Source of the DNA: an uncultured Thermococci archaeon
GTDB taxonomy: Archaea; CAYQAE01; CAYVLA01
Assembly (NCBI GenBank): GCA_964549615.1
Contig: CAZJVP010000051.1
Location: forward strand, 58,740-122,739
DNA: 64,000 nt
Reading direction: 5' to 3'
Part shown: one piece after another, positions 30,422 to 59,148 of the stretch
Layout: each line of letters starts with the position of its first letter
Position numbering within the stretch: the stretch's first letter is position 1
Position numbers and translations under genes: made by a program
The notes under the pieces: model-generated
What the model was told of the DNA's origin: nothing
Seen by the model: only the letters and a program-made list of their open reading frames with translations
Database searches by the model: none

Positions 30422-31309
30422 CTACCTGTAGAGCACCTGGCACTTGGGACAGAAGTAACTGACCCTGTTCCTTTCTCCCGTGTTCTTGGTGATGACCCTG
30501 TCCCCAGAGGCCGGGCATCTCGGCTTTCGATAAATCCCGAAGATACCCCCGAAGCCCTTTCCCGCTTTCTCAACCTCGTATAGCCTTAGGGCGAATTCCC
30601 TGGTCCTCTGGGCGAGGTCCGAAAGCCCGTCGCGGGGAATGGCGGCCACGACGCTCATTGGATGGATTCGGGCGTCGAAGAGGGCCTCGTTCTTGATCAT
30701 GTTCCCCACGCCAGCGTAGATCTCCTGGTCCATGAGCACGTCGCATATCAGCTCGTCCGGCTTCTGGAGCGTCAGAGCAATGACCTTGTCCTTCTTCCAG
30801 CTCGGCCCGGTCACATCGATCTCGGGGTCGAAGGCCGGCCCAGTCAGCCCACCATCGATGATCCGCACGGAGCAGTTGTAAAACCGCAATTTCCCGTCTT
30901 CAAGGTCAAGGCCCAGCCTCGGGGTCACCCCGGGCCTTTCCTCGTCGACGCGCCAGCTGCCGTACATCATGAAGTGAATCCTCACGTGGAAGTCGGGAAA
31001 GGCTATGATGAGCTGTTTTCCTCTGCTGAATATCTCCCGGATCACGAGGGAGTTCATCCGTGGGGCCTGGATCCTAGCACTGCCGAAGCTCTTGACGACC
31101 CTCTTGCCCTGGAATGCAGAAAGCCGCTCTGAGACGATTCTGACCATGGGTCCTTCCACGGCGGCTCTCTCGCCGCCAGGTTGAAATCTGCCCCCTCGCA
31201 GCCGGGGACACGCCAAGGCGGAGGCGGGTGCCATCCTGAAACAAGCACCCGCGGGATGAGGCAACGTATATACTGGTCCTCCGATGATCGGACATGGCAG
31301 GATGTCCAT
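30422..31309 (-). CDS. Fpg/Nei-family DNA glycosylase (H2TH + C4 zinc finger), atypical N-terminus
   Basis: LMDQEIYAGVGNMIKNEALFDARIHP (H2TH) and C-terminal RCPASGDRV...YFCPKCQ zinc finger; N-terminal PELPEV motif not evident (likely start near EGPMVRIVSERL). Confidence 0.55.
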   Translation of the reverse strand: MDILPCPIIGGPVYTLPHPAGACFRMAPASALACPRLRGGRFQPGGERAAVEGPMVRIVSERLSAFQGKRVVKSFGSARIQAPRMNSLVIREIFSRGKQLIIAFPDFHVRIHFMMYGSWRVDEERPGVTPRLGLDLEDGKLRFYNCSVRIIDGGLTGPAFDPEIDVTGPSWKKDKVIALTLQKPDELICDVLMDQEIYAGVGNMIKNEALFDARIHPMSVVAAIPRDGLSDLAQRTREFALRLYEVEKAGKGFGGIFGIYRKPRCPASGDRVITKNTGERNRVSYFCPKCQVLYR

Positions 31310-31725
31310 TCTGCGAGATAAGCTCTGGGGAGGCCCCGGCGAGCATCGTCTACCGGGACGCGAAGGTGATGGCCTTCATGGATCTGCGCCCGGCCAATCC
31401 GGGTCACGTCTTGGTCATCCCAAGGGAACACTGGGAAACCATACATGAGGTCCCCGATTCTATCTTGGTCGACGTCTTCAGGATTGTGAAGCGCGTGGCT
31501 GGTGCGGTCAGGGAGGCAGTCAACGCCGAGGGCATCAACGTCATACAGAGCAACGGCAGAGCAGCGTACCAGATGGTGGACCATTTTCATGTGCACGTCA
31601 TACCGAGATTCCAAGGGGACGCTATCTCCAAGACGGTCCAGGCTGTGCTGGCGCCACTGGAGTTTGAAACGGCGCAGAGGGAGGACCTGGACGAGGTGGC
31701 AGACCTCATCAGAAAGTCTCTCTGA
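31294..31725 (+). CDS. HIT-family (histidine triad) hydrolase, copy A
   Basis: 143 aa; CPFCEI...HFHVHVIP histidine triad; ~90% identical to 36806..37237. Confidence 0.75.
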   Translation: MAGCPFCEISSGEAPASIVYRDAKVMAFMDLRPANPGHVLVIPREHWETIHEVPDSILVDVFRIVKRVAGAVREAVNAEGINVIQSNGRAAYQMVDHFHVHVIPRFQGDAISKTVQAVLAPLEFETAQREDLDEVADLIRKSL

Positions 31726-31871
31726 GCGGCAACGTGGGTGAATCACATCGGCATTGCGGTCCCGGGGCCGCTCCCCCTAACCAAGGGTGGATGATCGTGC
31801 TCCATCGGAGACTACTGGACCACAACAGATTTCAGAGGAGGCGCCAGGAGGCAGTCTACTGGGGATGAGAT

Positions 31872-32162
31872 GGGGCTGCTGGGTAGAGAGGTTGGCCTGG
31901 CCTTGATCACCCAGTGCTTTTTTTCGGACTGTACGGCGTGGCATCCCCTTCCATACCGTTCGGCCTCCTCTGGATCGGGCTGATCGCAGGCTTCGTTTAT
32001 GCAGCGGTTCAGGGCCGCAGGAAGAGGTTCACCTTCCTGACCCGGGCCACATCCTCTCCCATCTCCCTTGTTCTTACCGGCTACTTCATTTCTGCCCCAA
32101 ACCCAAACTGCAGCCGTGTGGTCTTTCCTCGGCGTGCAGAACAACACCGCTATCGCCGGTAA
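31872..32162 (+). pseudogene. Small membrane protein, copy A, frameshifted at a T7 homopolymer
   Basis: MGLLGREVGLAL... frame stops after the run ctttttttcgg; the downstream frame (31914..32162) continues homology to intact copy B (IAGFVYAAVQGRRKRFTFLTRATSS). Confidence 0.4.
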
Positions 32163-33879: not shown

Positions 33880-34925
33880 CAGAAGTTTCCCTCCCTCTCC
33901 TTATGAATGTTCCGGCCGGTGGAGAAAGAAGAAGTAGAAAAGGTGCTCATGTGCAGGGACTATGCCCAGGGACACACAACCTACGACTGTCCCAAGTGTG
34001 GCCGCATCACTATCGTACCCTTCACGTGTAAGAGCCGCCTATCCTCGGCCTGTGGGAAGAAACACACCGACAGATGGGCAGACAAGGTCAGCGCCGAGCT
34101 TCTGGAGGTAGCCCATCGGCACATGGTCTTCACCACACCAGACAAGCTCTGGCCCCACCTGGAACAACACCGATGGCTACTCAAGGACGTCATGGACACG
34201 GTCAAAACAGCGCTGGAGGAGGTGGTAAACCACAGGTGGAAAGCCCTCCAGATAGTCCCAGGGATAATCAAGTCCTCCACACCTATGGCAGGGAATTCAA
34301 GTTCAACCCCCACATCCAGGCCATAGTGACGGACGGGGACTCAGAGAAAGGGACTAGTACGGCGGGGAGAGGCGGATGGATGTCAACTTCTTTCCCTACG
34401 AGAAGCTGAGAAAGGTGTGGCAGCACCAGCTGGTCACAGGGATCAGGGAGAAACTCCCCCACGACAAGGAGCTGCACAGCCTCCTGGACCAGCTCTACAG
34501 GGAGAAGGAGAACGGATTCTACGTCTACGCCAAGAGAAGGATCGAAGGCAAGGAGAAGGAGTTCATCTGCAGATACGTCGCAAGGTACGTCCGCCACCCA
34601 GCCATAGCTGAAACCCGAATAAACAGCTACAACCCGCACACCAGGATGGTCGAGTTCTGGTACAGACACGACGACGACACGGAAACAGTGAGCATGCACG
34701 TCTACGAGCTCATAGGCAAGCTCATAGGACACATACCACCTAGACAGTTCAAGACGATAAGGTACTACGGCCTGTACGCCAGGAACAAGAAGAGAAAGAT
34801 CCAAGATGTGCTGATTGTAGCTCACATTCTCATGAATGTTTCGCTACGAGTAGCGCCACGAGCGACGGGCGAGAAAAGTATAAATGGGGCCCTGTCTAAA
34901 GGCAAGACGGAGGGAGAATGATGCA
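33880..34925 (+). mobile_element. IS91-family-like transposase remnant (zinc-binding domain + Y2-transposase domain) split over three reading frames
   Basis: Frame 1 (33907-34326): DCPKCGRITIVPFTCKSRLSSACGKKH zinc domain; frame 3 (~34250-34330): VLHTYGREFKFNPHIQAIVTDGD (HxH motif); frame 2 (34376-34921): ...KTIRYYGLYARNKKRK (catalytic Y motif); at least 2 frameshifts. Confidence 0.5.
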
Positions 34926-36345: not shown

Positions 36346-36665
36346 TCATTGTGACTGTGACTGTGACTGTGACTGTGACTGTGACTGTGACTGTGACGGT
36401 ATCGTGGCGGATTGTGCCCAATCCGACAGTCGTGTATGGTACCTCATGGGCACAAGTGGTAGCGAATCCCCCACCAATGCAGCCCTCACGTGGAGGCCCG
36501 GGAAGGCGATGACCAGCTGCTTGCTCCCGCTGAATGCGTCCCTGATCACTAGTTCATCTTGGAGGCATCGATCTTCGCATCGACGAAGCTCCTGACGACC
36601 TTGCTGCCCTTGAACCCGGAGAGGCGCTCGGACACGATTCTAAGCAGGTGTCCTTCCATGGCCAT
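36346..36665 (-). pseudogene. Fpg/Nei fragment (copy B), N-terminal ~70 codons only, with stop + frameshift
   Basis: Minus strand reads MEGHLLRIVSERLSGFKGSKVVRSFVDAKIDASKMN*, then in another frame IRDAFSGSKQLVIAFPGLHVRAALVGDS, homologous to IREIFSRGKQLIIAFPDFHVRIHF of intact copy; homology ends at the microsatellite. Confidence 0.45.
36351..36397. repeat. Hexanucleotide microsatellite (GTGACT)x7.8
   Basis: Read directly: gtgactgtgactgtgactgtgactgtgactgtgactgtgactgtgac. Confidence 0.9.
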
Positions 36666-37770
36666 CCCCTGGCCAGCGGTTTGAGATTTCCTCCTCCTTC
36701 AGGGCGCCTGCGCCAAAGCCCAAGGCGGTCTCGGGCACGGCGGAAAGGCATTAGGGGAGCAGGGAGCAAGACAACGTATTTAGCCAGTCCGCCCGATGAT
36801 GGGCCATGGCAAGATGTCCCTTCTGCGAGATAAGCTCCGGAGAGGCCCCGGCTAGCATCGTGTACCAGGATGCGGCTGTGATGGCCTTCATGGACCTGCG
36901 CCCGGCCAATGCCGGCCATGTCTTGGTCATCCCCAGGAAGCACTGGGAAACCATACACGAGATCCCGGACTCAACCCTGGTCGACATCTTCAGGGTGGCG
37001 AAAAGGGTGGCTGGTGCGGTCAAGGAGGCCGTCAGCGCCGAGGGCATCAACGTCGTACAGAGCAACGGCCGGGCAGCGTACCAGATGGTGAACCACCTTC
37101 ACGTGCACGTCATACCGAGATTCCAGGGAGATGCTATATCCAAGACGGTCCAGGCCGTTCTGGCGTCGCTGGAGTTTGACGTCGCACAGAGAGAGGACTT
37201 GGACGAGGTGGCCGAGCTTATCAGAAGGTCTCTCTGACGGATTGCCTAGGCGGACCACAGCGGCATTTCAGATCTTGGGCCGTGTTCTCCGCCAGCGAGG
37301 GCTGCGTGCGGCCCTCGGGAATGCTGGACCATAACAGCTTTCAGAGGGAGGAGTCTTCAGGGAACCGGCAGGGGATGAGATGGGGCTGCTGGCTAGAGAG
37401 ACTGGTTTGGCGTTGACAATCTCCATGCTGTTCCTCGGCATGCATGCCCTGCGGTCTCCTACCATACCCCTCGGCCTACTCTTCGCCGGGCTGATCGCAG
37501 GCCTCGTTTTCACAGTCGTCCAGGGCCACCGAAAGAGGGTCAACTTCCTGACCAGGGCTGCCTCCTCCGCCGTCTCCCTCGTTCTCGCCGGCTACTTCCT
37601 TTCTGCTGCGATCTACCTGCTTCTGCCTCTCAAGCCATCCCCGTATCTGGCGGTCCTCATGCCTCTGTACCTGATCCTCGCCTACCGGTTGCTGAGAACC
37701 GACCTTAGGATGTGGTCTTGGTACAGGTCCGCCCACCCGGCACTTCCCGGCAGAGTCCCGGGGCAGAACT
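36400..37770. repeat. Segmental duplication copy B
   Basis: See copy A; same gene order and orientation. Confidence 0.55.
36806..37237 (+). CDS. HIT-family hydrolase, copy B
   Basis: 143 aa, CPFCEI...HLHVHVIP; paralog of 31294..31725. Confidence 0.75.
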   Translation: MARCPFCEISSGEAPASIVYQDAAVMAFMDLRPANAGHVLVIPRKHWETIHEIPDSTLVDIFRVAKRVAGAVKEAVSAEGINVVQSNGRAAYQMVNHLHVHVIPRFQGDAISKTVQAVLASLEFDVAQREDLDEVAELIRRSL

Positions 37771-37979: not shown

Positions 37980-38621
37980 GTGCTTCCTACTGGGATAGCC
38001 AGGATGCTTCGGGAGTTGTCTTTGCTGGAGCGACCCGTCTCGCAGGTTGAGATCGCACGGGTGACCGGGTGCTCTGCTTCCATGGTCAGCAAGGTCGTGG
38101 GAATGCTGGGAAGGAAAAGGATCGTTCACAAGCCTGCGAAGAGGAGGGTGGCTGTAGCTAATCTGGAGTACCTCCTGTTGTATTGGGCCTTCAGGCGGGA
38201 CATAGAGGATGATCCACGCACCCTTCTGGAAACCTCGTTGGCGGCCCAGGAAGTTGAGGAACACGCGGGCAGGTCATGTCCTCAACTGGCCTTCACGGCT
38301 TTCTCTGCTGCTAGGGTAGTGGGTGCGTACCCTGCGCCGTACTCCGACGTCATCGCCTACGATCTCTCCAACGGGTCGTGTGAGCTTGACCTGCCGAAGG
38401 GAAGAAGCTCGACTTTAGTGTTGCTGAGGGCGGATGATGCCCACCTAGGGTCGAAGACAATGCTGAAGGATGGGCTCAGAGTGGTGCCCATCAGGCAGGC
38501 TTATGTGGATCTTCTGAGCCTCGGGACCTGGGAGGCGAAGTACGCAGCCATGTCGCTGGCCGGAATCGATACCTGCCTTCCTCTGATCGGGTCGCGGCCC
38601 GAGATCACGGAATATCTTTGA
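37980..38621 (+). CDS. Winged-helix transcriptional regulator with C-terminal unknown domain
   Basis: N-terminal LRELSLLERPVSQVEIARVTGCSASMVSKVVGMLGRKRIV (HTH). Confidence 0.45.
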   Translation: MLPTGIARMLRELSLLERPVSQVEIARVTGCSASMVSKVVGMLGRKRIVHKPAKRRVAVANLEYLLLYWAFRRDIEDDPRTLLETSLAAQEVEEHAGRSCPQLAFTAFSAARVVGAYPAPYSDVIAYDLSNGSCELDLPKGRSSTLVLLRADDAHLGSKTMLKDGLRVVPIRQAYVDLLSLGTWEAKYAAMSLAGIDTCLPLIGSRPEITEYL

Positions 38622-38671
38622 GGCCGCTGCTGCAGTTGATCTCCAGATCCGCGCCGTGAGCCTCGTGACAC

Positions 38672-39883
38672 TTGAGCAGGTTGGAGGCATCTGATATGAA
38701 CGAGGTGATGGAGAATCCAAAGAAGGTGAAAGGTGGAGCTTACGTATTGGTCACGCCCAATGGTCCCGAGGACGGCGGGGATTTCGGGCCCAGGACGACG
38801 GGAACAAGAACCAGCGGCATCCAGGAAGCCTTGGATCATGCGAAGGGCAACAGGAAGGACCTCTACATCGCCGGCGGCGGCCTCACCGAACCATTCAAGG
38901 GAGGCGTGGGCTACCAGCTTCAGGAAACCCTGAGGATACCTTGGAACCAGAACTGGCGCCTGGACGGGGGAGAGTACTGGCTGACCTACGCGGGGGAGAG
39001 CGGGGACGGCGTGGTCATCGACAGCCAGATGAACTGCCGGATCAAGCTCGGGGTGGTCGTCAACTCCCGTTCCCCTGGGGCTGTCGTGCGTATATGTCCC
39101 ACCTCAAAAGGGCCGGATAACTTCCGGTGCGCCGTGGCCAGCACCTTCCAGTTCAACGCGCTGGTCGGTGCCGGGGATGTCTGGGGAAAAGGTGGGGCGG
39201 TGCAGAGGAGCACAGGGCTTCTGATGGACGCATCCGGAGGGCCGATCTCGGGCAACAAGGTGCAGGTCCGGGAGATCAACGCATGCGACGTCGGCGTACA
39301 CCTGACCCAAGGGTGCAGCGGGAACGACATCGAGGCGACCTGGATTCACCTGACCAATCTGGGCTTGAGGATCGGGGATGAAGGGTCTCCCAATGTCCGC
39401 GGGAACACAATAAAGGCAGGCATCTCGGGCGACCTGAAGGGGACCAAGGGTGTGCAGATCTTCGGGCAGAGGAATCTCCTGACGATCAATGCCCACGGCA
39501 ATGATCCGGGCCAGAACATGATATTCGAGGAAACGGCCAGGGACAACCTCATCATCGCCCTGGATCTTGCCGACGGGTTCACCAACCGCGCGGCGATCCC
39601 GACGAATCGAATCATTCCCGCATGCCCCGTCGAATTCTCCCTGGCCACGCCGCCCATCCCTGCATCGGGAGAGGAGGTGGTGAACCGATATCCTTACACG
39701 GTGCTTGTTCGCATCGTGCGCCCGGGCAGGGTCACCGGCTGGATTGAAAAGGATGCCAACGGGGCCTCCGAGGCGTTCCAGGGCAACCTGTTCGTAGGAC
39801 AAACGCTCGTTCTGTCGCCTGGCCAGGGGATCATCTTCACCTACGATGAGCCGCCGGCCTGGAGATGGAAGGCCGTCGAGTAG
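38672..39883 (+). CDS. Right-handed parallel beta-helix (pectin-lyase-fold/NosD-like) protein, no signal peptide
   Basis: 403 aa with repetitive G/N/D-rich ~22-aa turns (NACDVGVHLTQGCSGNDIEATWIHLTNLGLRIGDEGSPNVRGNTI...). Confidence 0.4.
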   Translation: MSRLEASDMNEVMENPKKVKGGAYVLVTPNGPEDGGDFGPRTTGTRTSGIQEALDHAKGNRKDLYIAGGGLTEPFKGGVGYQLQETLRIPWNQNWRLDGGEYWLTYAGESGDGVVIDSQMNCRIKLGVVVNSRSPGAVVRICPTSKGPDNFRCAVASTFQFNALVGAGDVWGKGGAVQRSTGLLMDASGGPISGNKVQVREINACDVGVHLTQGCSGNDIEATWIHLTNLGLRIGDEGSPNVRGNTIKAGISGDLKGTKGVQIFGQRNLLTINAHGNDPGQNMIFEETARDNLIIALDLADGFTNRAAIPTNRIIPACPVEFSLATPPIPASGEEVVNRYPYTVLVRIVRPGRVTGWIEKDANGASEAFQGNLFVGQTLVLSPGQGIIFTYDEPPAWRWKAVE

Positions 39884-39933
39884 ACGTTTGGCTGTGACCT
39901 GTCTAGTCGTGTCGGCCGGACGCGGGTGGTTTC

Positions 39934-40662
39934 TTGAAGAACCAGTACTTCGGGGACACTAGGGATCTGTTCAAGTACGACCTCGTGCTGGAGTTCCTGC
40001 TCCAAACTGGGCTCAAGCGATTCACCTTCATCCCCATGCTCACCCAGGACGAACCAAGCTACAGCGGAGGCCGTACCGACCACTCGAAGGCGCGGGCTGG
40101 GACGGGCAGGAAGGAGTTGGTGGACAGCCTCACGGCCTGCATCAAGGAAGGCAGGAGGAACATAAGAGAGCTTAGTTGGGTCATCAGATCCGGCGCGCCA
40201 ACGGCCGGGATCAGCGTGGCGATCTACGCGGAGGATCGCCTATTCACGCACGAGGCAAGACGCCAGTACTTCGGGGGGATAGGCTTCGGCCTGCTCGAGC
40301 GCTCCGTGATTCTTGTGGATCCCGACATAGGCCTGGAGGTGAAGAGCATGAGGGGCAGGGAGGAAAGGTATGTCACCTACGACGAGGTCAAGCTTCTCTA
40401 CGATCGGATGGATCCGCGCTCGATCCTCACCGTATTCCAATTCATACCTCGGGTGAAGAGGCTCCATTACATCCAGCTTCTGCGGGCAAGGCTGGCACGG
40501 CAAGTCGCCACGGGCGGGGAAGTCTGCTACGTATCGGACAATCAGGTTGCCTTGTTTGCACTGGCCAAGGGCTCACGGTCAAGGCACTTGGTGCGCAGCG
40601 TGATCCATGGATATGCCGAACGCTACGGCCTGCTCTGTGGCCCCAACGAAGTCGATGGGTAG
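39934..40662 (+). CDS. Hypothetical protein; motif order reminiscent of RlmJ-type N6-adenine methyltransferases but DPPY replaced
   Basis: MKNQYFGDTRDLFKYDLVLEFL (cf. RlmJ YRHSFHAGNHADVLKH) and ILVDPDIGLE (cf. ILIDPPYE); speculative. Confidence 0.35.
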   Translation: MKNQYFGDTRDLFKYDLVLEFLLQTGLKRFTFIPMLTQDEPSYSGGRTDHSKARAGTGRKELVDSLTACIKEGRRNIRELSWVIRSGAPTAGISVAIYAEDRLFTHEARRQYFGGIGFGLLERSVILVDPDIGLEVKSMRGREERYVTYDEVKLLYDRMDPRSILTVFQFIPRVKRLHYIQLLRARLARQVATGGEVCYVSDNQVALFALAKGSRSRHLVRSVIHGYAERYGLLCGPNEVDG

Positions 40663-40681
40663 TTTCAGGGCATGTTGGTCG

Positions 40682-41938
40682 TCATGCCCTTGCCCGCATC
40701 CTCTTAATGATCTGAGAGAAGTTGCGAGCAATCTCCTCCATTCCCTGCGGCGATGGATGGACGAGATCGAAGCTCAGCCCGGGGACCTCCCTCAGCAGTC
40801 TCCTTCCATCGATGTGGAACAGTCTGGGCATGTTCAGATCCTTGACCGCGTCGCGCACGATCTGCCTGAACGCGGCCTGCCTAGCCGGCGTTGGCTCAAG
40901 GTCGGCAGAGAAGGTGAACATGTCGGTGCAGAACACCCATTTCCTGGGATGGGATCTGGCGATCCTGCGCACGAAGTACCTCACCCTGCGTTCGAACTCC
41001 TCGTTTGTGAACTCCGGGCGGGGCATCATGTTGATGCCTATCTCCAGCGTGGCGAGGTCCCAATCCTGCCGGCGGGCGATGTAGTCCGCCATCTGGGCTT
41101 CGCAGTGGGCACCGCCGCCGAAGCCCAGGTTCACCAAATCGACCCCAAGCATCTGGGCCATCCGCATAACGTAGGAGCCAGTGGGCCTTATTGCCCAAGC
41201 ACCGTGGGTGATGGACGAGCCGTAGGTGAGCAGGGTCTCCCTCGGGGTCTGGGACCTCCTGGGAGGCTCGGTCTCGCCCTCTACCTCGACCAGCCTAACG
41301 GGCGGCCAGTACGGTAGGATTACCCTTGTTAGGTGTGCGTCGAAGGGAAGCTTCCTCTCCCTCGTGATCTTGTCGAGGGACTTCATGTTCTGGGGCTTCG
41401 ACACCCTGATCTCCGTGGCCTCGGGGCCTACGAGGTGCCATGAAACCAGGAAGCATCCCTGGAAGACTTCGACCAGCGCGGGCGGCTCCTTGCCGGCTAT
41501 GAGACTGATCTTCGCCTCGGTCCCTTTGAGGTTGAACCTGATCTCCGCCCCCGCCGCGGCCAGGGCTGCCTCCTTGGCTTGATCGTTCAAGCTCACCCTC
41601 AGGTCATTGGGGATCCTGCTGAGCAGCATTCCCTTGCCGTCGGGAGGCGATATCAGCTCCTCGATGTTGTGCAATTCCACGCCTTTGTGAATCAACTCCT
41701 CATCCCTCGCAGCGATGTTGCTTGGGCCTCCAGCAGCGTCCGCCTCGGCGTCGGCCGAGGAATCCACGTCCTGGCATAAGCCGGTGTCCGGTGGAGCTGC
41801 CGCCAGGCAGGCGGGCCGAAGTGCGCATAGATATCTTTCGCCGAGAGGACTAGGTGTCGGGCATCCCGGCGCTTGATCGTGCTGGTCCGAGCTCCATCCT
41901 TCATCCCCCGACGGCTGTCCCAAGTGCATGCTGTGCAC
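40682..41938 (-). CDS. SGNH/GDSL-family hydrolase with N-terminal extra domain
   Basis: LTYGSSITHGAWA (GDSx-like block I) ...DLVNLGFGGG...; C-terminal DLVHPSPQG (block V DxxH). Confidence 0.5.
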   Translation of the reverse strand: MHSMHLGQPSGDEGWSSDQHDQAPGCPTPSPLGERYLCALRPACLAAAPPDTGLCQDVDSSADAEADAAGGPSNIAARDEELIHKGVELHNIEELISPPDGKGMLLSRIPNDLRVSLNDQAKEAALAAAGAEIRFNLKGTEAKISLIAGKEPPALVEVFQGCFLVSWHLVGPEATEIRVSKPQNMKSLDKITRERKLPFDAHLTRVILPYWPPVRLVEVEGETEPPRRSQTPRETLLTYGSSITHGAWAIRPTGSYVMRMAQMLGVDLVNLGFGGGAHCEAQMADYIARRQDWDLATLEIGINMMPRPEFTNEEFERRVRYFVRRIARSHPRKWVFCTDMFTFSADLEPTPARQAAFRQIVRDAVKDLNMPRLFHIDGRRLLREVPGLSFDLVHPSPQGMEEIARNFSQIIKRMRARA

Positions 41939-42079: not shown

Positions 42080-43381
42080 ATGCTCGTGGAAACTCCAGCG
42101 CAGAGCAGTAACATGCCTGCGCCCTCCGGTCAAGCTGGTGATGAGCCAGTCCACTGGCTTGCCGTCCTTTCCCTTGCATCGTGCGTCATGGGTTCGTCGG
42201 CGGCCACGGCCCTGGAGGACGGACGGATCGGGGTCCTCTACATCGGCTGCATCGCCCGTTCCCGGCCCTTCTGGGACATGAGGCAGGACCCTCTCTTCGC
42301 GCTCAGCTTCGTGCAGGCGACCCTTCGCTCGTCCGGAGCATGGGCCCCTATACAGCAGGTGTCGGGAGGAGGTGAAGTGGCCAGGATGGTGAGGCTGTAC
42401 ATGCCCCGAACCTACTCGCGGCTGACGTCGGGGTTCGATGTCATAGTCCTTTCCAACGCGAATCGATTCATGGTGGGCGTGAGCAACATCGAGATGGTCG
42501 CCCGTGCAGTCAGGGAGGGTGGCCTGGGGCTTTTCATGTCCGGAGGCTGGGAGAGCTTCGGGGGGCACAATCATCCCGACTGGGGAAGCACCTCGGTGGG
42601 CGATCTGCTTCCGACCGTGGATGTTGAGGGCTCCTGGGTGTCGCATCCGCGTGGCGACCTCAAGCTCGTGATCACCGACGAGAAGCACGAGTTCATCAGG
42701 AGCCTTCCCTGGGAGAGGGAGAAGGCGCAGTTCATGTTCGACTTCCACCACAACGTGGTCACAGCCAAAGAGGGTTCCCAGGTGCTTGCCCGGGTACGGG
42801 CTCCGGACTTGGATGATCCGGCCATGGTGAGCTGGGAGCTTGCGGGGGGAAACCGCGTCTTCGCCCTAACCGGCGAAGTCCACACGATGGCGTTAGGCCC
42901 GTGGCCGTACTACCTGGACTTCGGGGCAAACCTGATGATCTACCTTGACGGCCGCCCAGTTCCCCAAGACATCGACCTGGTGCACTCGCTCAGGACGACG
43001 ATGCACGCGGTCGCCGTAAGGAGGTCCCTGCTGATTAGCCTCCTGGAGTTCTGTGACTCCTTCGGCGCTGACACGGGCGGGATCACGGTCAGGACGGACG
43101 AGCTGGACAAGATCGCGGCGCAGGCAAAGCCCCTCTATCTGCAACTGCAGTTCCAAGAAACCCTAGACGCCTACAGGAGCGTCGAGGAGGGCCTGGCGAC
43201 GATCGAACAGGACGCAATGCGGCTGAAGGACAGAACCCTGTTTTGGATCTACATCATCGAATGGGTTGCCGTGACCGGAACCATGATGGTCTGCGGGGTC
43301 CTCCTTTGGTCGATCATGATCCGCCACAGTCTGTACAGAGAAACCCGAACGACAAGGTTGGAGCGCCTGGATCCACCCTGA
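42080..43381 (+). CDS. Paralog C of the 5-member secreted/C-terminally anchored family
   Basis: RIGVLYIGCIARS...DVIVLSNANRF...GLGLFMSGGWESFGG...LKDRTLFWIYIIEWVAVTGTMMVCGVLLWSIMIRHSLYRE. Confidence 0.6.
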   Translation: MLVETPAQSSNMPAPSGQAGDEPVHWLAVLSLASCVMGSSAATALEDGRIGVLYIGCIARSRPFWDMRQDPLFALSFVQATLRSSGAWAPIQQVSGGGEVARMVRLYMPRTYSRLTSGFDVIVLSNANRFMVGVSNIEMVARAVREGGLGLFMSGGWESFGGHNHPDWGSTSVGDLLPTVDVEGSWVSHPRGDLKLVITDEKHEFIRSLPWEREKAQFMFDFHHNVVTAKEGSQVLARVRAPDLDDPAMVSWELAGGNRVFALTGEVHTMALGPWPYYLDFGANLMIYLDGRPVPQDIDLVHSLRTTMHAVAVRRSLLISLLEFCDSFGADTGGITVRTDELDKIAAQAKPLYLQLQFQETLDAYRSVEEGLATIEQDAMRLKDRTLFWIYIIEWVAVTGTMMVCGVLLWSIMIRHSLYRETRTTRLERLDPP

Positions 43382-43852: not shown

Positions 43853-44314
43853 CTACAGTCCTAGCATCTTAGCAGCTTGCCGATGATCGACGACTTGGAA
43901 ATCAGAGTAGGTCGGCATGAGGCTTTGGACCGGAAATCCTTGGATCTCCTCGTCCTCGGTGATGAGGATGTTTCCCGCCCAAGCCCCTGTCGCAACTATC
44001 ACACAGTCAACGAAATCCGTCATCTGCCTTCGCGCTAGGATCGACCTCAGGCAGACCTCCGGCTCGGAAACCGGCACCTTGGTCAATCCCTCGTCGGACG
44101 CCAATACGGCGATGCCGGTGAGGACGTCGTCCTCTCGAAGATACGACTCGGCGCAATGTTTGGCCGCGATTGCCATGGCCTCGAACACGGAGATTTCACT
44201 GAGCATCGTCTCGTGTCCGGCCCGACGGAGTCTCCGGAGAAGGTCCCTTGGAACGTCGGCCTGGGCCATCCCTAGGCAGGGAAGAACGTAGGTGGTGTCG
44301 AGGACGACCCTCAT
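43853..44314 (-). CDS. vapC: PIN-domain ribonuclease toxin (VapC-like)
   Basis: 153 aa, MRVVLDTTYVL... acidic PIN residues; 4-nt overlap with upstream small gene. Confidence 0.55.
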   Translation of the reverse strand: MRVVLDTTYVLPCLGMAQADVPRDLLRRLRRAGHETMLSEISVFEAMAIAAKHCAESYLREDDVLTGIAVLASDEGLTKVPVSEPEVCLRSILARRQMTDFVDCVIVATGAWAGNILITEDEEIQGFPVQSLMPTYSDFQVVDHRQAAKMLGL

Positions 44315-44547
44315 CGCTCCAGCCTCTGAGAGAGTTCTTTTCGGGACCTGGTGAACTCCTCAGGCGAGATGATCAGCTTCGGCTCCCTCTCGAGGAGGTC
44401 ATCAAGGCTGGGGAGGGGATGCACGATGAGCCGTCCACGGTCGACGCTGTATGACACCAGAGAACCCGGCGCAATCCCGAGCGCGTCCCTCATACTCTTT
44501 GGTGGGAACAGCTCGCCCTTGGATCCAACCCTGCCGGTGACGGCCAT
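44311..44547 (-). CDS. vapB: AbrB/SpoVT-MazE-type antitoxin (VapB-like)
   Basis: 78 aa, MAVTGRVGSKGELFPPKSMRDALGIAPGSLVSYSVDRGRLIVHP swapped-hairpin barrel signature. Confidence 0.5.
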   Translation of the reverse strand: MAVTGRVGSKGELFPPKSMRDALGIAPGSLVSYSVDRGRLIVHPLPSLDDLLEREPKLIISPEEFTRSRKELSQRLER

Positions 44548-44721: not shown

Positions 44722-46044
44722 TTGGGAGGTCGGGAGGGGTGGCCGGGCCCGTTGGTGGTGGTGTCGGAAGATTCTTATCCGTTCTGGACCGAAGCGGGGT
44801 GGATGCTGGAGAATCGCCTTCTCCTCATAGCCGTCATCGCTGCGATCGCGGTGGGGCAAGCACGCCAGGGTTTGGCTCTGGAGGACCGCCGGATCGGCGT
44901 CCTGTACGTGAGCGATCCCATCAGGTCACCCGCCTTCACCTTCATGCGCGCCGAGCCCATCTTCTCCCTCACCTTCGTGGCCGCCTCCCTGAGGGGCTTC
45001 GGGGGCTGGGATCTGGACGACGTCCACAGGGCGATACGGCTCTATTTCCCGCGCATGTACCAGGATCTGACAAGCCGATTCGATGTCGTGGTCCTTGACA
45101 ATGCGAACCAGATGGCGATTACGCCTGAGCAGATCGAGCTGTTGGCACGGGGAGTGAGGGAGGCTGGCATAGGATTGCTCATGACGGGTGGCTGGGAAAG
45201 CTTCGGCGGCACGGGGACGGCCCAGCCCTCATGGGGCCCGACCGCGATCGGCGCCCTTCTTCCCGTCCAGTGCGTCGACGGCACATGGGTCGAATCGGGC
45301 AGGCTCGTCATCGACGAGCCGGAGCACGAGTTCGTGGCAAGCATCCCATGGGACCGCAAGGGCCCATTCATGCAGTCCTTCCACCACAACCTGGTCACCG
45401 TCAGGGAGGGGGGACAGTTGCTCGCCCATACCGACCGCAACCGGTATCAACCTGGTGGCGACCACCCGCTTTTCATCACGTGGGAGGTGGAAGGGGCAAG
45501 GGTCTTCGCGTGCACGGGCGAGATAGTCCAGATGGCATCGATCTTCAGCTACGGCGGCACGAACTACGACATCTGGGAGTACTACGGGGATTTCATAAGC
45601 AACCTGATGATCTACCTCGACAAGCGCCCGGTGCCCCAGGATGTCGATCTCGTCCATGCCGTGAGGTCGACGGCATTCCAAAGCAGGACCAGGGTCTCCC
45701 TGCTCTTGAGCCTCGTTGAGTTCGTCGAGTCCTTCGGGGCGAACGGCCAGGGGGTGATGCGCTCAGTCGACGAGCTGAACGGGGTCGTCGCCCAGGCCGA
45801 CGGTGCGTACCTTGACCTCAACTTCGAGGAGGTTCTGGAAATCTATCGCCGGATCGGAACGATGCTCGATGACATCGAAAAGCAGGCGCTTGAGCTCAAG
45901 GACCGAACGCTTCTCTGGGTCTACCTCGTCGAGTGGCTCGCGGTGACCGGAACCGCTCTGCTCGCCGGCTTCATCTTGTGGACGACCATGGTCCGGCGGA
46001 GATTCTACAAGGAGATGAAGGTCACTAGAATCGCGGCCCTCTAG
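44722..46044 (+). CDS. Paralog D of the 5-member family
   Basis: RIGVLYVSDPIRS...DVVVLDNANQM...GIGLLMTGGWESFGG...LKDRTLLWVYLVEWLAVTGTALLAGFILWTTMVRRRFYKE. Confidence 0.6.
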   Translation: MGGREGWPGPLVVVSEDSYPFWTEAGWMLENRLLLIAVIAAIAVGQARQGLALEDRRIGVLYVSDPIRSPAFTFMRAEPIFSLTFVAASLRGFGGWDLDDVHRAIRLYFPRMYQDLTSRFDVVVLDNANQMAITPEQIELLARGVREAGIGLLMTGGWESFGGTGTAQPSWGPTAIGALLPVQCVDGTWVESGRLVIDEPEHEFVASIPWDRKGPFMQSFHHNLVTVREGGQLLAHTDRNRYQPGGDHPLFITWEVEGARVFACTGEIVQMASIFSYGGTNYDIWEYYGDFISNLMIYLDKRPVPQDVDLVHAVRSTAFQSRTRVSLLLSLVEFVESFGANGQGVMRSVDELNGVVAQADGAYLDLNFEEVLEIYRRIGTMLDDIEKQALELKDRTLLWVYLVEWLAVTGTALLAGFILWTTMVRRRFYKEMKVTRIAAL

Positions 46045-46192: not shown

Positions 46193-47446
46193 TTGAAGGT
46201 TGGCTTTGCCATCAGCGAGATCACACCTCCGTTAGGCATTCCGTTGAGTGGCTACGGGTTCTTCCGGGATCGTAAGGCGGATGGGGTGTCCGACCCTTTG
46301 TACGTCAGGGCCGTGGGCATGGAGGATGAGGAACCTGCTCTGATCTTGGCCTTCGACCTTCTCGGCCTTGACTCCCTGCTGGTAGCACGCCTGAGGAGGA
46401 AGCTGGCCGACATGGCGGGCATCCCGAGGGATCACCTCATGCTGACTTGCACCCACACCCACTCCGGCCCCAACGTCATGCCTTTGCGAGGTGAGCCTCG
46501 GAGGAGAGGGACATACCTGCGTGATCTTGTCGAGCAGGCGGGGGCGGCTGGGCAGGAGGCATTAGACCAGGCACGGACGGTGCGCGGCCTGTCGCGGTTC
46601 CGCACGCGCTTTGGGGGCTTCTCATGGAACAGGGCCTTTGCCGATGGCGAGGTCAGCCGGGAGGTCAGCGGGATGGTTGCGAGGACGTCCGCGCGGACCG
46701 TGGTTTTAGTGAACTACGCCTGCCACCCCGTCACCCTGGGCATCAACACGCAGATCTCGGCTGACTACCCAGGGGCATTCAACCAGATGATGGCCCGGGC
46801 CGGGATCTGCTCGCTCTTCCTCACGGGTCCCTGCGGCGACCTAGATCCGGTCGTGAACCGGGATAGCTGGGGACGCGGTACGAAGGAACTTGCGAATCAG
46901 TATGCCAAGCAGCTTTTAAGGGCCACCCTGCGTGGGATTTCCCGCGCCAAGCCCTTTCGGGTGGACCAGTGTTCCGTCGCCACCGCGAATTTCAGGGCAC
47001 CATACCGCGTGCCCGGAAGGCGGGAACTGAAAGAGGCATTGGCGAAGGCAAGGCAGGTCAAGGAGGACCCTGACAAGAAAGCGCTCTTCGAGATCTGCTG
47101 GGCGCGGGACGGGCTCAACCTGCTCAGATCTGGCCGTTTCGCCAAGTCGGCAACGCTGTATCTTCAGGCGTTCCGCGTGGGGGAGGTTGTGGTGATTGCG
47201 CTGCCGGCCGAGGTCTTCTTTGAGTTCGGGGAGGCGATAAGGGCTCCCTTCCCAGAAACTGAAGTCCTGATCGCCACGAGCGCGAACTCCGTGGTGGGGT
47301 ACATCCCTTCGGAGAGGGATTTCGAGGCAGGCGGGTACGCCTCGGGCCTTGCATGCAAGTTCTACAAGAGGTTTCCCTTCGAGCCGGGGATAGGGGTCAA
47401 GCTGGTTGACCGATCGATCAAGCTCATTCGATCGCTTCTGCGGTGA
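46193..47446 (+). CDS. Neutral/alkaline ceramidase N-terminal-domain hydrolase (short form)
   Basis: ISEITPPLGIPLSGYGFFRDR...DPLYVRAV...LMLTCTHTHSGP matches the neutral ceramidase catalytic N-domain; 417 aa (shorter than the ~650 aa canonical form). Confidence 0.5.
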   Translation: MKVGFAISEITPPLGIPLSGYGFFRDRKADGVSDPLYVRAVGMEDEEPALILAFDLLGLDSLLVARLRRKLADMAGIPRDHLMLTCTHTHSGPNVMPLRGEPRRRGTYLRDLVEQAGAAGQEALDQARTVRGLSRFRTRFGGFSWNRAFADGEVSREVSGMVARTSARTVVLVNYACHPVTLGINTQISADYPGAFNQMMARAGICSLFLTGPCGDLDPVVNRDSWGRGTKELANQYAKQLLRATLRGISRAKPFRVDQCSVATANFRAPYRVPGRRELKEALAKARQVKEDPDKKALFEICWARDGLNLLRSGRFAKSATLYLQAFRVGEVVVIALPAEVFFEFGEAIRAPFPETEVLIATSANSVVGYIPSERDFEAGGYASGLACKFYKRFPFEPGIGVKLVDRSIKLIRSLLR

Positions 47447-47818: not shown

Positions 47819-49159
47819 TCAGGTCTTCTGTGCATGTAGCTTGGTTGTGTGGACCTCTCTCCATAGCCTGCGGCGCACCATAACCGACCACAGCACGAAG
47901 CCCGTCACCACTGCCGTTGCGGTCACCGTCAACCATTCGATCACATATACCCAGAGGAGGGCGCGGTCCTTGAGTTCCATGGCGTCTTTCTCTATCTCGC
48001 CAAGCGCTTCGTGGGCCTGCTCGTAGGCCTCAACCACATCCTCGAAGCGAAGCTCAAGATAGGCGGGCAGGGCGTCGAGCGCGATGCGGTTTGCTTCGTC
48101 CAACCTCATATTGATCGAGTTCGTGTTTGCGCCGAAGGAGTCGCAGAATTCCAGAAGGCCGACCAAGAGCGACTTCCGGGTGCCGAACTCGAACATGCTC
48201 TTCCTCACTCGATGGACAAGCTCCACATCCTGGGGCACGGGCCGCCGATCGAGGTAGATCATGAGGTTGGCACCGAAGTCCAGGGCGTATTCCCAGGGGT
48301 CGCCAGGAGTGCACATGGTGTGCAACTGGTAGGGCTCGGAACTGGGCCCGAAGATCTCGCCCGTGATCGAGAAGGTTCGGCCCCCGCCCGGCAGATCCCA
48401 GGTGACGAAGCCCGGGTCATCCTTGTACCCGGGTCCCTCGACGTGTGCCAGCACCAAGGATCCCGGCTTCGCCTTCACCAGGTTGTGGTGGTAGTTGTAC
48501 ATGAAAGGCTGGGTCCTGTCCCATGGCAGGCTGCTCATGAACTCGTGATCGGGCATGTCGATGACGAGTGTGTGGACGTTGGCCGGGCGGTGGATGTAGA
48601 TGTTGCCCGCATCCTCGGTGGGAAGCAGCTGGCCTATGGCCGAGTCGCCCCAGGGCGGCCTCCCGAACGCGCCGCCGAAGCTCTCCCACCCACCCACCAT
48701 GACAAGTCCCATGCCGGCCTCCCGCACGCCACGCGCCAGCATCTCGATGTGCGTCGGTGGGATCGCTTCCCTGTTTGCGTTGGACAGGATGATGACATCG
48801 AAGCGGGATGTCAGGTCCGAAAAGGACCGTGGCATATACAGCCTCACGATCCTGTAGATCTCGCCCTCACCCTTGGTGGCCTGGATGGGCGCCAGGGCGG
48901 CCCAGTCGCGGAGCGTTGCCTGGACGAAGTTGATCGAGAAGAGGGGATCGGACCTCATCCACCAGATCGGCGTGGAACGGGCAAGGCAGCCGGCGTAAAG
49001 CACCCCTATTCTTCCGTCCTGAAGGGCCGTCGTCGTTGAGAGAGCCGCTTGAAGGGCAAGGAGCACGGCAGCCGCTAGGGCTGGGCGGCAGCCAAGCTTG
49101 TGAGCGAAGCCTGCCTGCAGCGACACAGGGGTCGTGCGGCTGACGGCGGCCATGCTCAC
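47819..49159 (-). CDS. Paralog E of the 5-member family
   Basis: RIGVLYAGCLARS...DVIILSNANRE...GMGLVMVGGWESFGG...LKDRALLWVYVIEWLTVTATAVVTGFVLWSVMVRRRLWRE. Confidence 0.6.
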   Translation of the reverse strand: MSMAAVSRTTPVSLQAGFAHKLGCRPALAAAVLLALQAALSTTTALQDGRIGVLYAGCLARSTPIWWMRSDPLFSINFVQATLRDWAALAPIQATKGEGEIYRIVRLYMPRSFSDLTSRFDVIILSNANREAIPPTHIEMLARGVREAGMGLVMVGGWESFGGAFGRPPWGDSAIGQLLPTEDAGNIYIHRPANVHTLVIDMPDHEFMSSLPWDRTQPFMYNYHHNLVKAKPGSLVLAHVEGPGYKDDPGFVTWDLPGGGRTFSITGEIFGPSSEPYQLHTMCTPGDPWEYALDFGANLMIYLDRRPVPQDVELVHRVRKSMFEFGTRKSLLVGLLEFCDSFGANTNSINMRLDEANRIALDALPAYLELRFEDVVEAYEQAHEALGEIEKDAMELKDRALLWVYVIEWLTVTATAVVTGFVLWSVMVRRRLWREVHTTKLHAQKT

Positions 49160-49764: not shown

Positions 49765-50178
49765 TTGGAAAAGATGGGGAAAGCCGAGAGGAAGGTGCTG
49801 ATCAAGTACGACTCGAAGGGGGTGGGCCCGGACTTTTGGCAGAAGCTCTATGGCTACTCCAAAGGCAAGTACCGTTACCCCGGACTTCTGGACGATGTGC
49901 CCGGAGCTGTGAGGATGGCCAAGGGGCTCATTGCGGTTCCGGAGGTGCAGGCGGAGAGGATCAAACGCTTCCTAAGAGAACAGGGCGCTACGTTTGAGGA
50001 GCAGGGGACGGTGGCACCGGCAATCGAGGCTCCGGGGCTTCTCCGCTGGGATCTCGCCCGGCACGTCCTTCACGAGAGGCTGGAAGGCTTGGGGGAGGAG
50101 ATGGACAGATTGGGCCCCTTCATCAAGGCCGTTTCGACAAGGGACGCCCTTGAGGACTTGGAGAGGTATGGCTACTGA
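49765..50178 (+). CDS. Uncharacterised 137-aa protein, candidate partner of downstream PIN toxin
   Basis: AT-rich region with possible promoter upstream; stop overlaps PIN start (ATGGCTACTGA). Confidence 0.4.
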   Translation: MEKMGKAERKVLIKYDSKGVGPDFWQKLYGYSKGKYRYPGLLDDVPGAVRMAKGLIAVPEVQAERIKRFLREQGATFEEQGTVAPAIEAPGLLRWDLARHVLHERLEGLGEEMDRLGPFIKAVSTRDALEDLERYGY

Positions 50179-50677
50179 GGTCGTGCTCGATACCAGCTAC
50201 CTGCTGGCCTGGCACAGGGAGAACGATAGGCTTCATCCCAGGGCCGAGAAGATCCAGGAGAGCCTTGCGAGGGCAAAGCCGGTTCGCATCATCCTTGATT
50301 GCGTTTACTCCGAACTGATCGCCGTCCTGGCTAGAACAAGGGTCAGGGAGGAGGGAAAGGCACGGGAATTCCTGGAGGAGGAAAGGAAGCTGAGGCAGGT
50401 CTACTGGCCTAGGCTTGTCTGGATGACGTATATTGGAGGTAAAGACCTCATAAAGCGTGCCCTGGATGTGACGAGGGAGGCCGCCGAGAAATACGGGGTC
50501 GGGATCTCGCCCAACGACGCTATGCTCCTGATCTTCTGCCGGGAGAGGCACGTCCCGTTTCTGGTGAGCTTCGATAGAAGCCTTGGGCAGGTTGAGACGG
50601 TTGAGGGTAAGAAGTCGGAGGTCACGGTCGTGGACGATTCCAACAGGGAGGTTTTGCTAAGGCCAGGGAGTGTATGA
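50168..50677 (+). CDS. PIN-domain protein (VapC-like toxin)
   Basis: MATEVVLDTSYLLAW... ; ORF track frame opens at 49994 but GGAGAGGT SD and ATG at 50168. Confidence 0.55.
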   Translation: MATEVVLDTSYLLAWHRENDRLHPRAEKIQESLARAKPVRIILDCVYSELIAVLARTRVREEGKAREFLEEERKLRQVYWPRLVWMTYIGGKDLIKRALDVTREAAEKYGVGISPNDAMLLIFCRERHVPFLVSFDRSLGQVETVEGKKSEVTVVDDSNREVLLRPGSV

Positions 50678-50875
50678 CCGGAACCCCGTCGAGCCAGGGA
50701 GCGTCCTCGCCGGGCGAAAAAGTCTGGCTCTGCACGAGAGCCGGTTGACTGCCGCCGCGCCCTTGACGGGAGATCGGGCTCCTTGCCCCTGCTGGCCAGA
50801 CAGCCCCCAGTAAAGGTTCGGCACCGCAGCGTCCCCTACGATGGCTTCGGTGCACATCCTGTTACGGTGGGTTCG

Positions 50876-52381: not shown

Positions 52382-52655
52382 GGTCGGCAGAGGGAATGTC
52401 CAGGACTTTTCAATGTAACAGTTCCTCGTCTCGACAAAACGAGATGCATGGTCCAGTGCTCTCGTCCAGCCTCGTCGGTCTCCGACAGGGTGGACTTTCT
52501 GTACCTGGCGACATGTGCCTTTCGCTGTGGTAAGGTCCCCTGAAGAGGGTGGGAATCCAGCACAGCCGGCGTGCAGGAATCTACGAACCGGTCAGACAAC
52601 CCGTCACACAGACCGACAAGAAGGAGCATTCGGTGATCATTCATCTTGGGCCTAG

Positions 52656-52729
52656 AGCCCCGGGCGGGATTCGGACCCGCGACCTCCTGCTTACCAAGCA
52701 GGCGCCATAGCCGACTAAGCCACCGGGGC
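52656..52729 (-). tRNA. tRNA-Thr: tRNA-Thr (anticodon GGU), no encoded CCA
   Basis: Minus strand GCCCCGGTGGCTTAGTCGGCTATGGCGCCTGCTTGGTAAGCAGGAGGTCGCGGGTCCGAATCCCGCCCGGGGCT folds as a cloverleaf: 7-bp acceptor, anticodon loop TTGGTAA, T-loop TCCGAAT (C at position 55). Confidence 0.8.
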
Positions 52730-53533: not shown

Positions 53534-53546
53534 GGAGGCTCACATT

Positions 53547-54785: not shown

Positions 54786-54845
54786 GAAGGCTCGCCTGAC
54801 CGGGATGGCTTGCGGCTTGGACCCGGTTAAATCTTTTCGGACGTC

Positions 54846-56057: not shown

Positions 56058-56232
56058 GGGGTGTTGGGCTTGTACGCTGTCTGGACGGTCGATTCTTGTG
56101 GCCTTCGGGAAAGCACCTCGAGTCACCTCGAGTGCGATGATCCCGCAGTGGCGCGCAGCCTAGAGGGGGCCCGAAACCCTTATCTGTCGAACGGGTCGAG
56201 CCCCGCCAAGGATAATTCAGCACAGTGATTGG

Positions 56233-58910: not shown

Positions 58911-59148
58911 CCAACATAGGGATCTGAGGAATCTTAATTAGTGTTTCTCGGTCCTAGGAAGGATTCACCTTGGTCGGGTCGGCAGCGGTCCGGCGCGCCG
59001 TCGATCCTGCGGCATTTGTCTGGACCGTTGCGGATTTCGGGAACCGGACGGGTTCATCGTCGAAGCCCAATATTAGGCCCTGGCGTCCTCTTTGCGCCGG
59101 GCAAGCCCTCCATAGGAGCCAAGGATTCTTCCCTGATGGAGGGGGGTG

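Follow-up and report, generated by a model that had tools for sequence, protein, structure and literature searches.

Do four adjacent genes, encoding a winged helix-turn-helix (wHTH) protein, a right-handed parallel β-helix protein, a 242-amino-acid protein recalling the methyltransferase RlmJ and an SGNH/GDSL hydrolase, constitute a functional module of an uncultured Thermococci archaeon, or have they come to lie side by side through the history of the lineage? The genes are found in a stretch of 64,000 nucleotides (the window) belonging to a 152,668-bp contig of a metagenome assembly, the window coordinates being those of our locus L014 plus 29,933; a sequence-only reading of this DNA had regarded them as a possible module for polysaccharide or nucleic-acid modification, or as a defence-type locus. 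The comparative data presented below indicate that the four genes are likely a lineage-specific juxtaposition in an indel-prone region rich in carbohydrate-metabolism genes, not a conserved module, and that the 242-residue protein belongs to a large superfamily without a name.

Extent and conservation of the four-gene block

The four open reading frames (ORFs) of the sequence-only reading, at 37980-38621, 38672-39883 and 39934-40662 on the forward strand and 40682-41938 on the reverse strand, are all present at these coordinates; the first and the third can be kept as they are, the starts of the other two being probably over-extended. In fact, gene calling on the source contig yields proteins of 199 (wHTH), 395 (β-helix), 242 and 337 (SGNH) amino acids, the homologues of the β-helix protein align from residue 8-9 of the 403-residue ORF and those of the SGNH protein from residue 70-82 of the 418-residue ORF, and Shine-Dalgarno (SD)-like GGAGG / GAGGAG elements are found upstream of ATG 38696 and TTG 41695. 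Judging from these three indications, the β-helix protein probably starts at ATG 38696 and has 395 residues instead of 403, and the SGNH protein probably starts at TTG 41695 and has 337 residues instead of 418; with the latter start the end coordinate 41938 lies ~243 nucleotides too far and the N-terminal domain comprises ~155 residues, not ~235. The wHTH gene was kept at 37980-38621 because the alignments with its relatives begin at the first residue of the 213-residue ORF. The block is thus laid out as follows, the SGNH gene being convergent with the gene of the 242-residue protein at a distance of 19 nucleotides:

37980-38621, forward strand: wHTH protein, 213 amino acids (ORF scan)
38622-38695, no strand: junction from which the nucleotidyltransferase gene of relatives is absent (blastn against L010)
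38696-39883, forward strand: right-handed parallel β-helix protein, probably 395 amino acids, with a C-terminal β-sandwich-like region (ORF extendable to 38672)
39884-39933, forward strand: GC-rich spacer of 50 nucleotides with an SD-like element (sequence and alignment with three relatives)
39934-40662, forward strand: 242-residue protein, TTG start, predicted RlmJ-like Rossmann fold, large unnamed superfamily
40682-41695, reverse strand: SGNH/GDSL hydrolase, probably 337 amino acids, with an N-terminal domain of ~155 amino acids (ORF extendable to 41938)

The homologues of the 242-residue protein were gathered from 73 genome loci and 15 contig loci, distributed among Thermoplasmatota, Hadarchaeota, Nanoarchaeota, Micrarchaeota, Heimdallarchaeota and several methanogen orders, as well as Dehalococcoidia, Acidobacteriota, Actinomycetota, Saccharibacteria, Bacteroidales and Phycisphaerae. 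When 87 loci of the family were searched by tblastn with the wHTH, β-helix and SGNH proteins of the window, matches were obtained only in the close relatives L010-L015 (at least 65% identity), the sole exception being a wHTH match in L028. The search starting from the β-helix protein gave the same picture: any of the other three genes is carried by three of 80 metagenome loci, and these three display 78-81% identity. The SGNH gene is, furthermore, displaced by three genes in L012/L091 and, in a relative with 65% identity, lies 4.2 kb from the gene of the 242-residue protein, a GATase1-like gene, a radical-SAM gene and one other gene being interposed. Among the more distant homologues of the 242-residue protein, some directly follow an HD gene, with NUDIX, deaminase and HAD genes close by, while others border a trp operon, adjoin purA or separate leuC from leuD; clustering of the neighbours detected nothing beyond within-lineage synteny. 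The sequence-only reading had itself named a lack of co-occurrence in other genomes as what would speak against its proposal and, the partners being found together only in close relatives, the premise that the four genes make up one functional module fails by this measure.

As to the wHTH protein, the fold attributed to it stands, with weak Pfam matches over residues 8-65 (HTH_Crp_2, E=1.2e-3; DUF7343; Rrf2), but its role as regulator of the block probably does not, because in relatives it belongs to a separate unit. In L010, L012 and L092 a nucleotidyltransferase gene encoding 209-218 residues stands between the wHTH and β-helix genes. Its overlap with the wHTH gene amounts to 4 nucleotides in L010 and likewise in L028, whereas in L012 it starts 23 nucleotides downstream of the wHTH gene. 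The nucleotidyltransferase of these relatives matches DUF2204 (22.6 bits, cutoff 20.3) as well as NTP_transf_5, and scores 17.4 bits against AbiEii, below the cutoff of 22.5 (PADLOC AbiEii, E=0.018). Comparison with L010 by blastn demonstrates that window positions 38625-38670 (46 nucleotides) take the place of L010 4107-4734 (628 nucleotides, encoding the nucleotidyltransferase) with a clean junction; a second clean indel, at window position 37729, corresponds to the absence of a 363-residue gene of L010. The wHTH gene displays 72% nucleotide identity with L010 3403-4106, whereas the flanking genes display 83-86%, a divergence that fits relaxed or diversifying selection after the loss of the nucleotidyltransferase partner.

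In these relatives a nucleotidyltransferase gene with GG...D.D motifs comes right after the wHTH gene, an arrangement resembling that of AbiE (AbiEi wHTH plus AbiEii nucleotidyltransferase, a type IV toxin-antitoxin); the DUF2204 nucleotidyltransferases are also comparable. The relatives differ from AbiE in that their AbiEii match is sub-threshold and that no AbiEi model matches the wHTH protein; the window itself has no AbiEii nucleotidyltransferase gene adjacent to the wHTH gene, hence no pair at this locus. The wHTH protein is probably the orphaned DNA-binding partner of an AbiE/DUF2204-like pair, i.e., the half that would have been left over upon deletion of the nucleotidyltransferase gene, and not a regulator of the downstream genes. 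A homologous pair is present in the Micrarchaeota metagenome-assembled genome L028 (phmmer 1e-21 for the nucleotidyltransferase and 1e-13 for the wHTH protein), the sole distant lineage having the wHTH family near the family of the 242-residue protein:

L028 3193-6105: wHTH gene (201 amino acids) and nucleotidyltransferase gene (209 amino acids) overlapping by 4 nucleotides; next come a NUDIX gene of opposite orientation, the homologue of the 242-residue protein and an ORF starting MYIFIDESGTTDE, which may be DUF3800-like

Three points weigh against a mere juxtaposition of the four genes. The order β-helix → 242-residue protein, with a spacer of 50-53 nucleotides and its SD-like element, is kept down to 65% protein identity, so that a lineage-specific functional link between these two genes may exist. 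The wHTH-nucleotidyltransferase pair recurs ~0.6-1.2 kb upstream of the homologue of the 242-residue protein in two very distant lineages (L010/L012 and L028), a recurrence exceeding chance expectation if such pairs are rare. Finally, SGNH or wHTH partners of very divergent sequence could have escaped tblastn at E<=1e-3. Juxtaposition nevertheless remains the reading that we prefer and, the genes being neighbours by lineage history, the block in itself is ordinary; it is the gene of the 242-residue protein that matters more.

The 242-residue protein and the RlmJ scaffold

The 242-residue protein finds no match in Pfam (2025 copy), NCBIfam 20.0, PADLOC-DB 2.0, PHROGs or the PDB sequences, and no mention of its family signature was found in the searchable literature. 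It has, nonetheless, 446 homologues of very uniform length, and a profile search with the family recovers at least 2,250 clusters at 50% identity (E<=1e-3), 1,084 of which at E<=1e-10. Twenty-five diverse homologues share 28 invariant columns, among them MKNQYFGD.RD.FKYD at the extreme N-terminus, MLT, DPD.G, Y.E, Q..P and D202. The motifs YFGDTRDLFKYDL and ILVDPDIGLE, on which the resemblance to RlmJ had been based, are both present and nearly invariant across the family, and the joint alignment with the bacterial branch described below retains D8, D11, G45, R109, D129, P130, D131, G133 and E151 as invariant and M1, Y5, K14 and R173 as near-invariant positions. A protein conserved to this extent cannot be termed degenerate, as the sequence-only reading had it.

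The gene is mostly stand-alone. In seven Dehalococcoidales/Dehalococcoidia loci (L008, L024, L025, L034, L035, L038, L040) the homologue adjoins leuD and leuB, its placement between leuC and leuD being seen in all five loci long enough to include leuC, as though a cassette had long ago been inserted into a housekeeping operon. In L008/L009 the homologue is followed by a GIY-YIG protein (28.9 bits, cutoff 22.6).

According to its structural model, the fold of the 242-residue protein is closest to that of RlmJ, the 23S rRNA m6A2030 (N6-methyladenosine) methyltransferase (PDB 6qe5, 2oo3). In both proteins strand 1 of a Rossmann-like core is followed by a helical insertion, the N-terminal helix has the pattern G-(N/D)-x-x-D-(V/L)-(L/F)-K-(H/Y), and a hydrophobic strand ends with Asp-Pro (ILIDPP in RlmJ, ILVDPD in the 242-residue protein). 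The loss of DPPY noted by the sequence-only reading is confirmed (DPDxG), and the resemblance that it suggested holds at the level of the fold but has no significant counterpart at the level of the sequence. Phmmer and profile searches of the PDB sequences return noise (Rab-23, NuoCD), the profile finding no RlmJ chain at E<=10; hhalign of the family profile against E. coli RlmJ gives a probability of 1.1% over 23 columns; and no Pfam model attains E<=0.1, the RlmJ model, presumably PF04378, being included. The identity over the structural alignment with RlmJ is 9%, and the Foldseek matches with methyltransferases are marginal (TM-scores 0.3-0.44).

The residues of RlmJ found to be important by Punekar et al. 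include Y4, H6, D15, K18 and H19 of motif X, D164-P165 of motif IV (164-DPPY-167) and the motif I sequence DTHAGAG (PMC3814359); K18 and the catalytic D164 are essential, H42 of motif I stacks on adenine and E118 serves for the ribose (PMC3814359). In a motif alignment, which is not a structural superposition, D11, K14 and Y15 of the 242-residue protein can be paired with D15, K18 and H19, and D129-P130 with D164-P165, whereas Y4 and H6 have no counterparts because the protein starts four residues later. Motifs I-III for S-adenosylmethionine (AdoMet) are not recognizable: IPMLT replaces DTHAGAG, no conserved acid follows the strand 94-97, and R109..Y112-F113 is the only segment loosely parallel to RlmJ D143-G144-F145. 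Motif IV retains its Asp-Pro but lacks the second Pro and the Tyr (D129-P130-D131-x-G133). Moreover, the main strands of the model number six instead of seven, apparently with a single strand where RlmJ has β2/β3, the protein is shorter by ~40 residues, and the family has invariant residues of its own, namely D8, G45, R109, D131, E151 and R173. The spermidine synthases and other aminopropyltransferases are likewise set apart, since the 242-residue protein has neither their Gly-rich motif I nor their tetramerisation N-domain nor sequence similarity with them, and the order of acidic, Pro and Gly residues is different.

A genuine AdoMet-dependent RNA or DNA methyltransferase, i.e., a divergent counterpart of RlmJ acting on another target atom, would account for the retention of D11/K14 and D129-P130 and of the helical insertion after strand 1, as well as for the vertical conservation of the gene in fixed positions within lineages and its presence in small genomes of DPANN archaea and the candidate phyla radiation (CPR). 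We nevertheless hold this alternative to be rather unlikely in view of the lack of a Gly-rich or His motif I and of an acid equivalent to E118, of the six main strands, of the DPDxG in place of DPPY, of the absence of Y4 and H6, and of the Pfam, hhalign and Foldseek results given above. The 242-residue protein has an RlmJ-like scaffold without being a member of the RlmJ family and, as far as can be judged from its motifs and model, is probably not an N6-adenine methyltransferase.

What, then, could the protein do? Its conserved residues occupy places that make up the cofactor and substrate pockets of class I methyltransferases: the N-terminal helix, the points where strands 1, 4 and 5 end, and the β6-β7 hairpin. 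Judging from conservation and fold, the RlmJ-type pocket would bind a nucleotide-like ligand or a nucleic-acid base, and the invariant N-terminus, conserved from Met1, would close over it like the motif X tail of RlmJ. Because four invariant acidic residues are accompanied by a Lys and two Arg, the protein would either act on a nucleotide or nucleic acid by metal- and phosphate-dependent chemistry or employ AdoMet in a non-canonical manner.

The bacterial branch and its contexts

A scan of IMG/VR yielded one weak relative, L170, a protein of 248 residues that starts with MKNQYFGDIGDYGKYGLL and contains FLDPDNGL. This protein seeds a bacterial branch that the profile of the 242-residue family detects at 9e-11; the branch counts 1,615 clusters (90% identity), all annotated as hypothetical and devoid of Pfam domains. 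The superfamily as a whole comprises thousands of clusters, with archaea, Chloroflexota, DPANN/CPR and many bacteria represented. The bacterial contexts sampled, about nine and not chosen at random, are the following:

L170: directly after McrC (PF10117, 7.5e-50)
L171-175: in an island with Phd/Fic, a dCTP-deaminase-like gene, Fic-like_C and a PLD-DEAD-helicase-DUF3427 protein
L176: after Csy1-4 of a type I-F CRISPR-Cas system
L177: among teichoic-acid and glycosyltransferase genes
L178, L179 and L181: on three further plasmids
L180 5014-7319, Ensifer adhaerens conjugative plasmid pCTYH.Ch1_3: trio GIY-YIG / 242-residue family / GIY-YIG, the last two genes overlapping by 4 nucleotides, with genes for a DNA methyltransferase and an SOS-response-associated peptidase nearby
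L182-185 (L182 5158-6735): preceded at a distance of 15 nucleotides by HEPN_AbiU2, both genes lying between hsdS and hsdR of a type I restriction-modification locus with HNH, DUF559 and RelB genes

In the last of these contexts HEPN_AbiU2 and the homologue represent a candidate two-gene unit of abortive-infection type.

Contexts of this kind raise the possibility that the 242-residue protein operates in a defence or toxin-antitoxin-type islet, acting together with a nuclease or nucleotidyltransferase or serving as its modifier or antidote, in which case the window would hold a decayed version of the islet (wHTH, nucleotidyltransferase lost, and further on the 242-residue protein). Proximity to HEPN_AbiU2 and type I restriction-modification genes, McrC, type I-F CRISPR-Cas, the Phd/Fic island and the GIY-YIG pair would be explained in this way, and so would the GIY-YIG gene following the homologue in the leu operon of Dehalococcoidales, the fusion of the domain to HEPN_Swt1 or PDDEXK_3 in some gene calls, the wHTH-nucleotidyltransferase pair upstream of the homologue in L010/L012 and in the Micrarchaeota L028, and the PIN-AbrB pair lying 3 kb downstream in the window. 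Against it stands the silence of PADLOC and PHROGs for every member tested; for six members of the bacterial branch Pfam, NCBIfam and PADLOC return nothing, and for the four proteins of the block PADLOC-DB 2.0 gives a single CasR-like match of the wHTH protein at E=0.058, the other three having none, so that PADLOC recognizes no known defence protein among the four. Nor does any partner family recur across the loci, as judged by neighbour clustering and by searches seeded with HD, NUDIX, HIT, nucleotidyltransferase, wHTH, GIY-YIG, HicB, deaminase, HAD, AbiU2, HNH, McrC and PIN. Most archaeal and Chloroflexi members instead have housekeeping genes as neighbours, their location being constant within a lineage, the bacterial contexts are those of the small, non-random sample mentioned above, and the window contains no adjacent nuclease and has lost the nucleotidyltransferase. 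A search of 50,697 GenBank phage genomes found no member, and IMG/VR gave only the one weak relative, a result that neither supports nor excludes defence. All in all, membership in such an islet appears unlikely.

Several further candidates were considered and set aside. A "nucleotide hydrolase" theme among the neighbours (HD, NUDIX, MazG-like, dCMP deaminase, HIT) concerns 3-4 loci and is not general; fusion partners (thiolase_C, an ESCO zinc finger/acetyltransferase, HEPN_Swt1, PDDEXK_3, AIG2) show no consistency and may stem from gene calls run together; the three genes of ~240 residues upstream in L171 are not paralogues; and the HIT-like nature of L171 gene 4188 (HTHIHM motif) is not claimed, its best support being E=0.035 in NCBIfam.

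Taking the pocket and the contexts together, we offer as a tentative proposal, whose chances we regard as rather low, that the superfamily consists of undescribed RlmJ-scaffold enzymes with a D..D..K/R/DPDxG/E/R site which would carry out a non-methyltransferase reaction on nucleotides or nucleic acids and which, in bacteria, would act as sensor, modifier or antidote partners of HEPN_AbiU2, GIY-YIG and McrC in new conflict systems.

The β-helix and SGNH proteins and the surrounding window

The β-helix protein has a sub-threshold match with Pfam Beta_helix, and its AlphaFold2 model, built on 35 homologues, attains a mean confidence score (pLDDT) of 92.2 and has the parallel right-handed β-helix fold of pectin-lyase type. 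None of the 197 homologues constituting the family carries a Pfam domain; those bearing a name belong to Planctomycetota, Sumerlaeota, Chloroflexota and Latescibacteria. Many bacterial homologues have an N-terminal hydrophobic leader or signal peptide, which the window protein does not have, in agreement with its description as cytoplasmic in the sequence-only reading. Invariant in the family alignment are D109, S110, D141, D178 and several Asn residues, and the neighbours of distant homologues encode GH116 (9 loci), Gfo/Idh/MocA (6), enolase-superfamily (6) and GH36 (4) proteins. With respect to the known glycanases having this fold (phage capsule depolymerases and tailspikes, GH28, GH110, PL6, AlgE/AlgG) the identity is only 8-16%, no Pfam model is matched at threshold, and the window copy is without signal peptide and tail-attachment domain. 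This is a predicted glycan hydrolase or lyase of a family without annotation, which most likely uses the pectin-lyase fold to cleave a glycan.

The SGNH protein matches Lipase_GDSL_2 (2.5e-15, 57.9 bits, cutoff 32.9) and Lipase_GDSL_3 (1.1e-14, 55.6 bits, cutoff 27), and the residues Ser, Gly, Asn and Asp-x-x-His of the Lipase_GDSL_3-type hydrolases are found in its four diagnostic blocks (I GxS, II G, III GxN, V DxxH):

41221-41201, reverse strand: block I, GSSITHG
41125-41108, reverse strand: block II, GFGGGA
41044-41027, reverse strand: block III, GIN (EIGINM)
40768-40751, reverse strand: block V, DLVH (DLVHPS)

It differs from these hydrolases by its additional N-terminal domain of ~155 residues, which matches no Pfam model. 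The identification of a convergent SGNH hydrolase with an extra N-terminal domain is therefore upheld, and the blocks suggest that the protein would be a catalytically intact esterase or deacetylase.

Both proteins fit the glycan-metabolism genes surrounding them, which include a sugar-nucleotidyltransferase gene and are dense in the window parts 1-30000 and 50000-61000:

6320-7681 and 9491-10651: two GT4/GT5 genes
7730-9271: GH57
10684-12453: glycogen phosphorylase-like gene with a YHS domain
14226-16415: DUF6259
19442-21724: GH42-like
21952-24345: GH20b-like
50876-52381: in addition to the carbohydrate genes, a PhoPQ_related protein with an AN1 zinc finger
59149-60669: BNR-repeat protein

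The themes proposed for the block survive for single genes, glycans for the β-helix and SGNH proteins and nucleic acids or defence for the 242-residue superfamily and the AbiE-like wHTH protein, and fail for the block as a whole.

In the spacer 39884-39933, which resembles that of three relatives, an SD-like element (GGTGGT/GGTGAT) is present and a TATA-like box is absent, features that make co-transcription of the β-helix gene and the gene of the 242-residue protein plausible; the two genes may be co-transcribed in this lineage, a pairing without counterpart elsewhere. Could the two genes and the SGNH gene, then, form a lineage-specific glycan operon in which cleavage of the glycan and removal of O-acetyl groups would be combined with methylation or another modification of the sugar or product by the RlmJ-fold protein? 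Besides the common strand, the short spacer without obvious promoter and the order retained in relatives at 65-85% identity, such an operon would agree with the wealth of carbohydrate-active genes in the window and with the GH116, GH36 and sugar-acid enzymes adjoining distant β-helix homologues. However, none of the 77 more distant β-helix loci has a homologue of the 242-residue or SGNH proteins, no locus of the 242-residue family beyond the close relatives has a β-helix or SGNH homologue, the SGNH gene is convergent and separated by three genes in L012/L091, and the contexts of the 242-residue family elsewhere indicate nucleotide or nucleic-acid biology, not glycans. We thus consider a glycan operon quite improbable.

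Downstream of the block lie at least three GATase1_like paralogues of ~430-445 residues (47-55% mutual identity), whose translations have hydrophobic stretches near both ends; a ceramidase-like gene (46193-47446) and a toxin-antitoxin pair of PIN + AbrB/MazE type are interleaved with them:

42080-43381, 44722-46044 and 47819-49159 (reverse strand): GATase1_like paralogues
43853-44547 (reverse strand): interleaved with the paralogues

Upstream of the block, a direct duplication of ~0.8 kb (31281-32095 and 36793-37606; 76-86% identity) spans a HIT gene (31294-31725 and 36806-37237; 86% amino-acid identity) and the start of a gene for a 132-residue membrane protein; it flanks a 5.5-kb segment with IS91-type transposase fragments (Zn_Tnp_IS91, 33907-34326; Y2_Tnp, 34376-34921), the relative L010 having a single HIT copy and no IS91-bearing insert. 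A perfect hexanucleotide microsatellite, (TGTGAC)x8, occupies the intergenic positions 36350-36397 upstream of the second HIT copy. Rfam and ARAGORN detect one tRNA-Thr only.

The significance of the locus resides, in conclusion, in the 242-residue protein, which marks a widespread superfamily for which Pfam, NCBIfam, PADLOC and PHROGs have no model and in which, as its model and conservation indicate, an RlmJ-type Rossmann scaffold has been rebuilt around a different, strictly conserved site of acidic and basic residues. If the association with nucleases holds, the superfamily would provide a new component of conflict systems, tractable by virtue of its ~240 residues.

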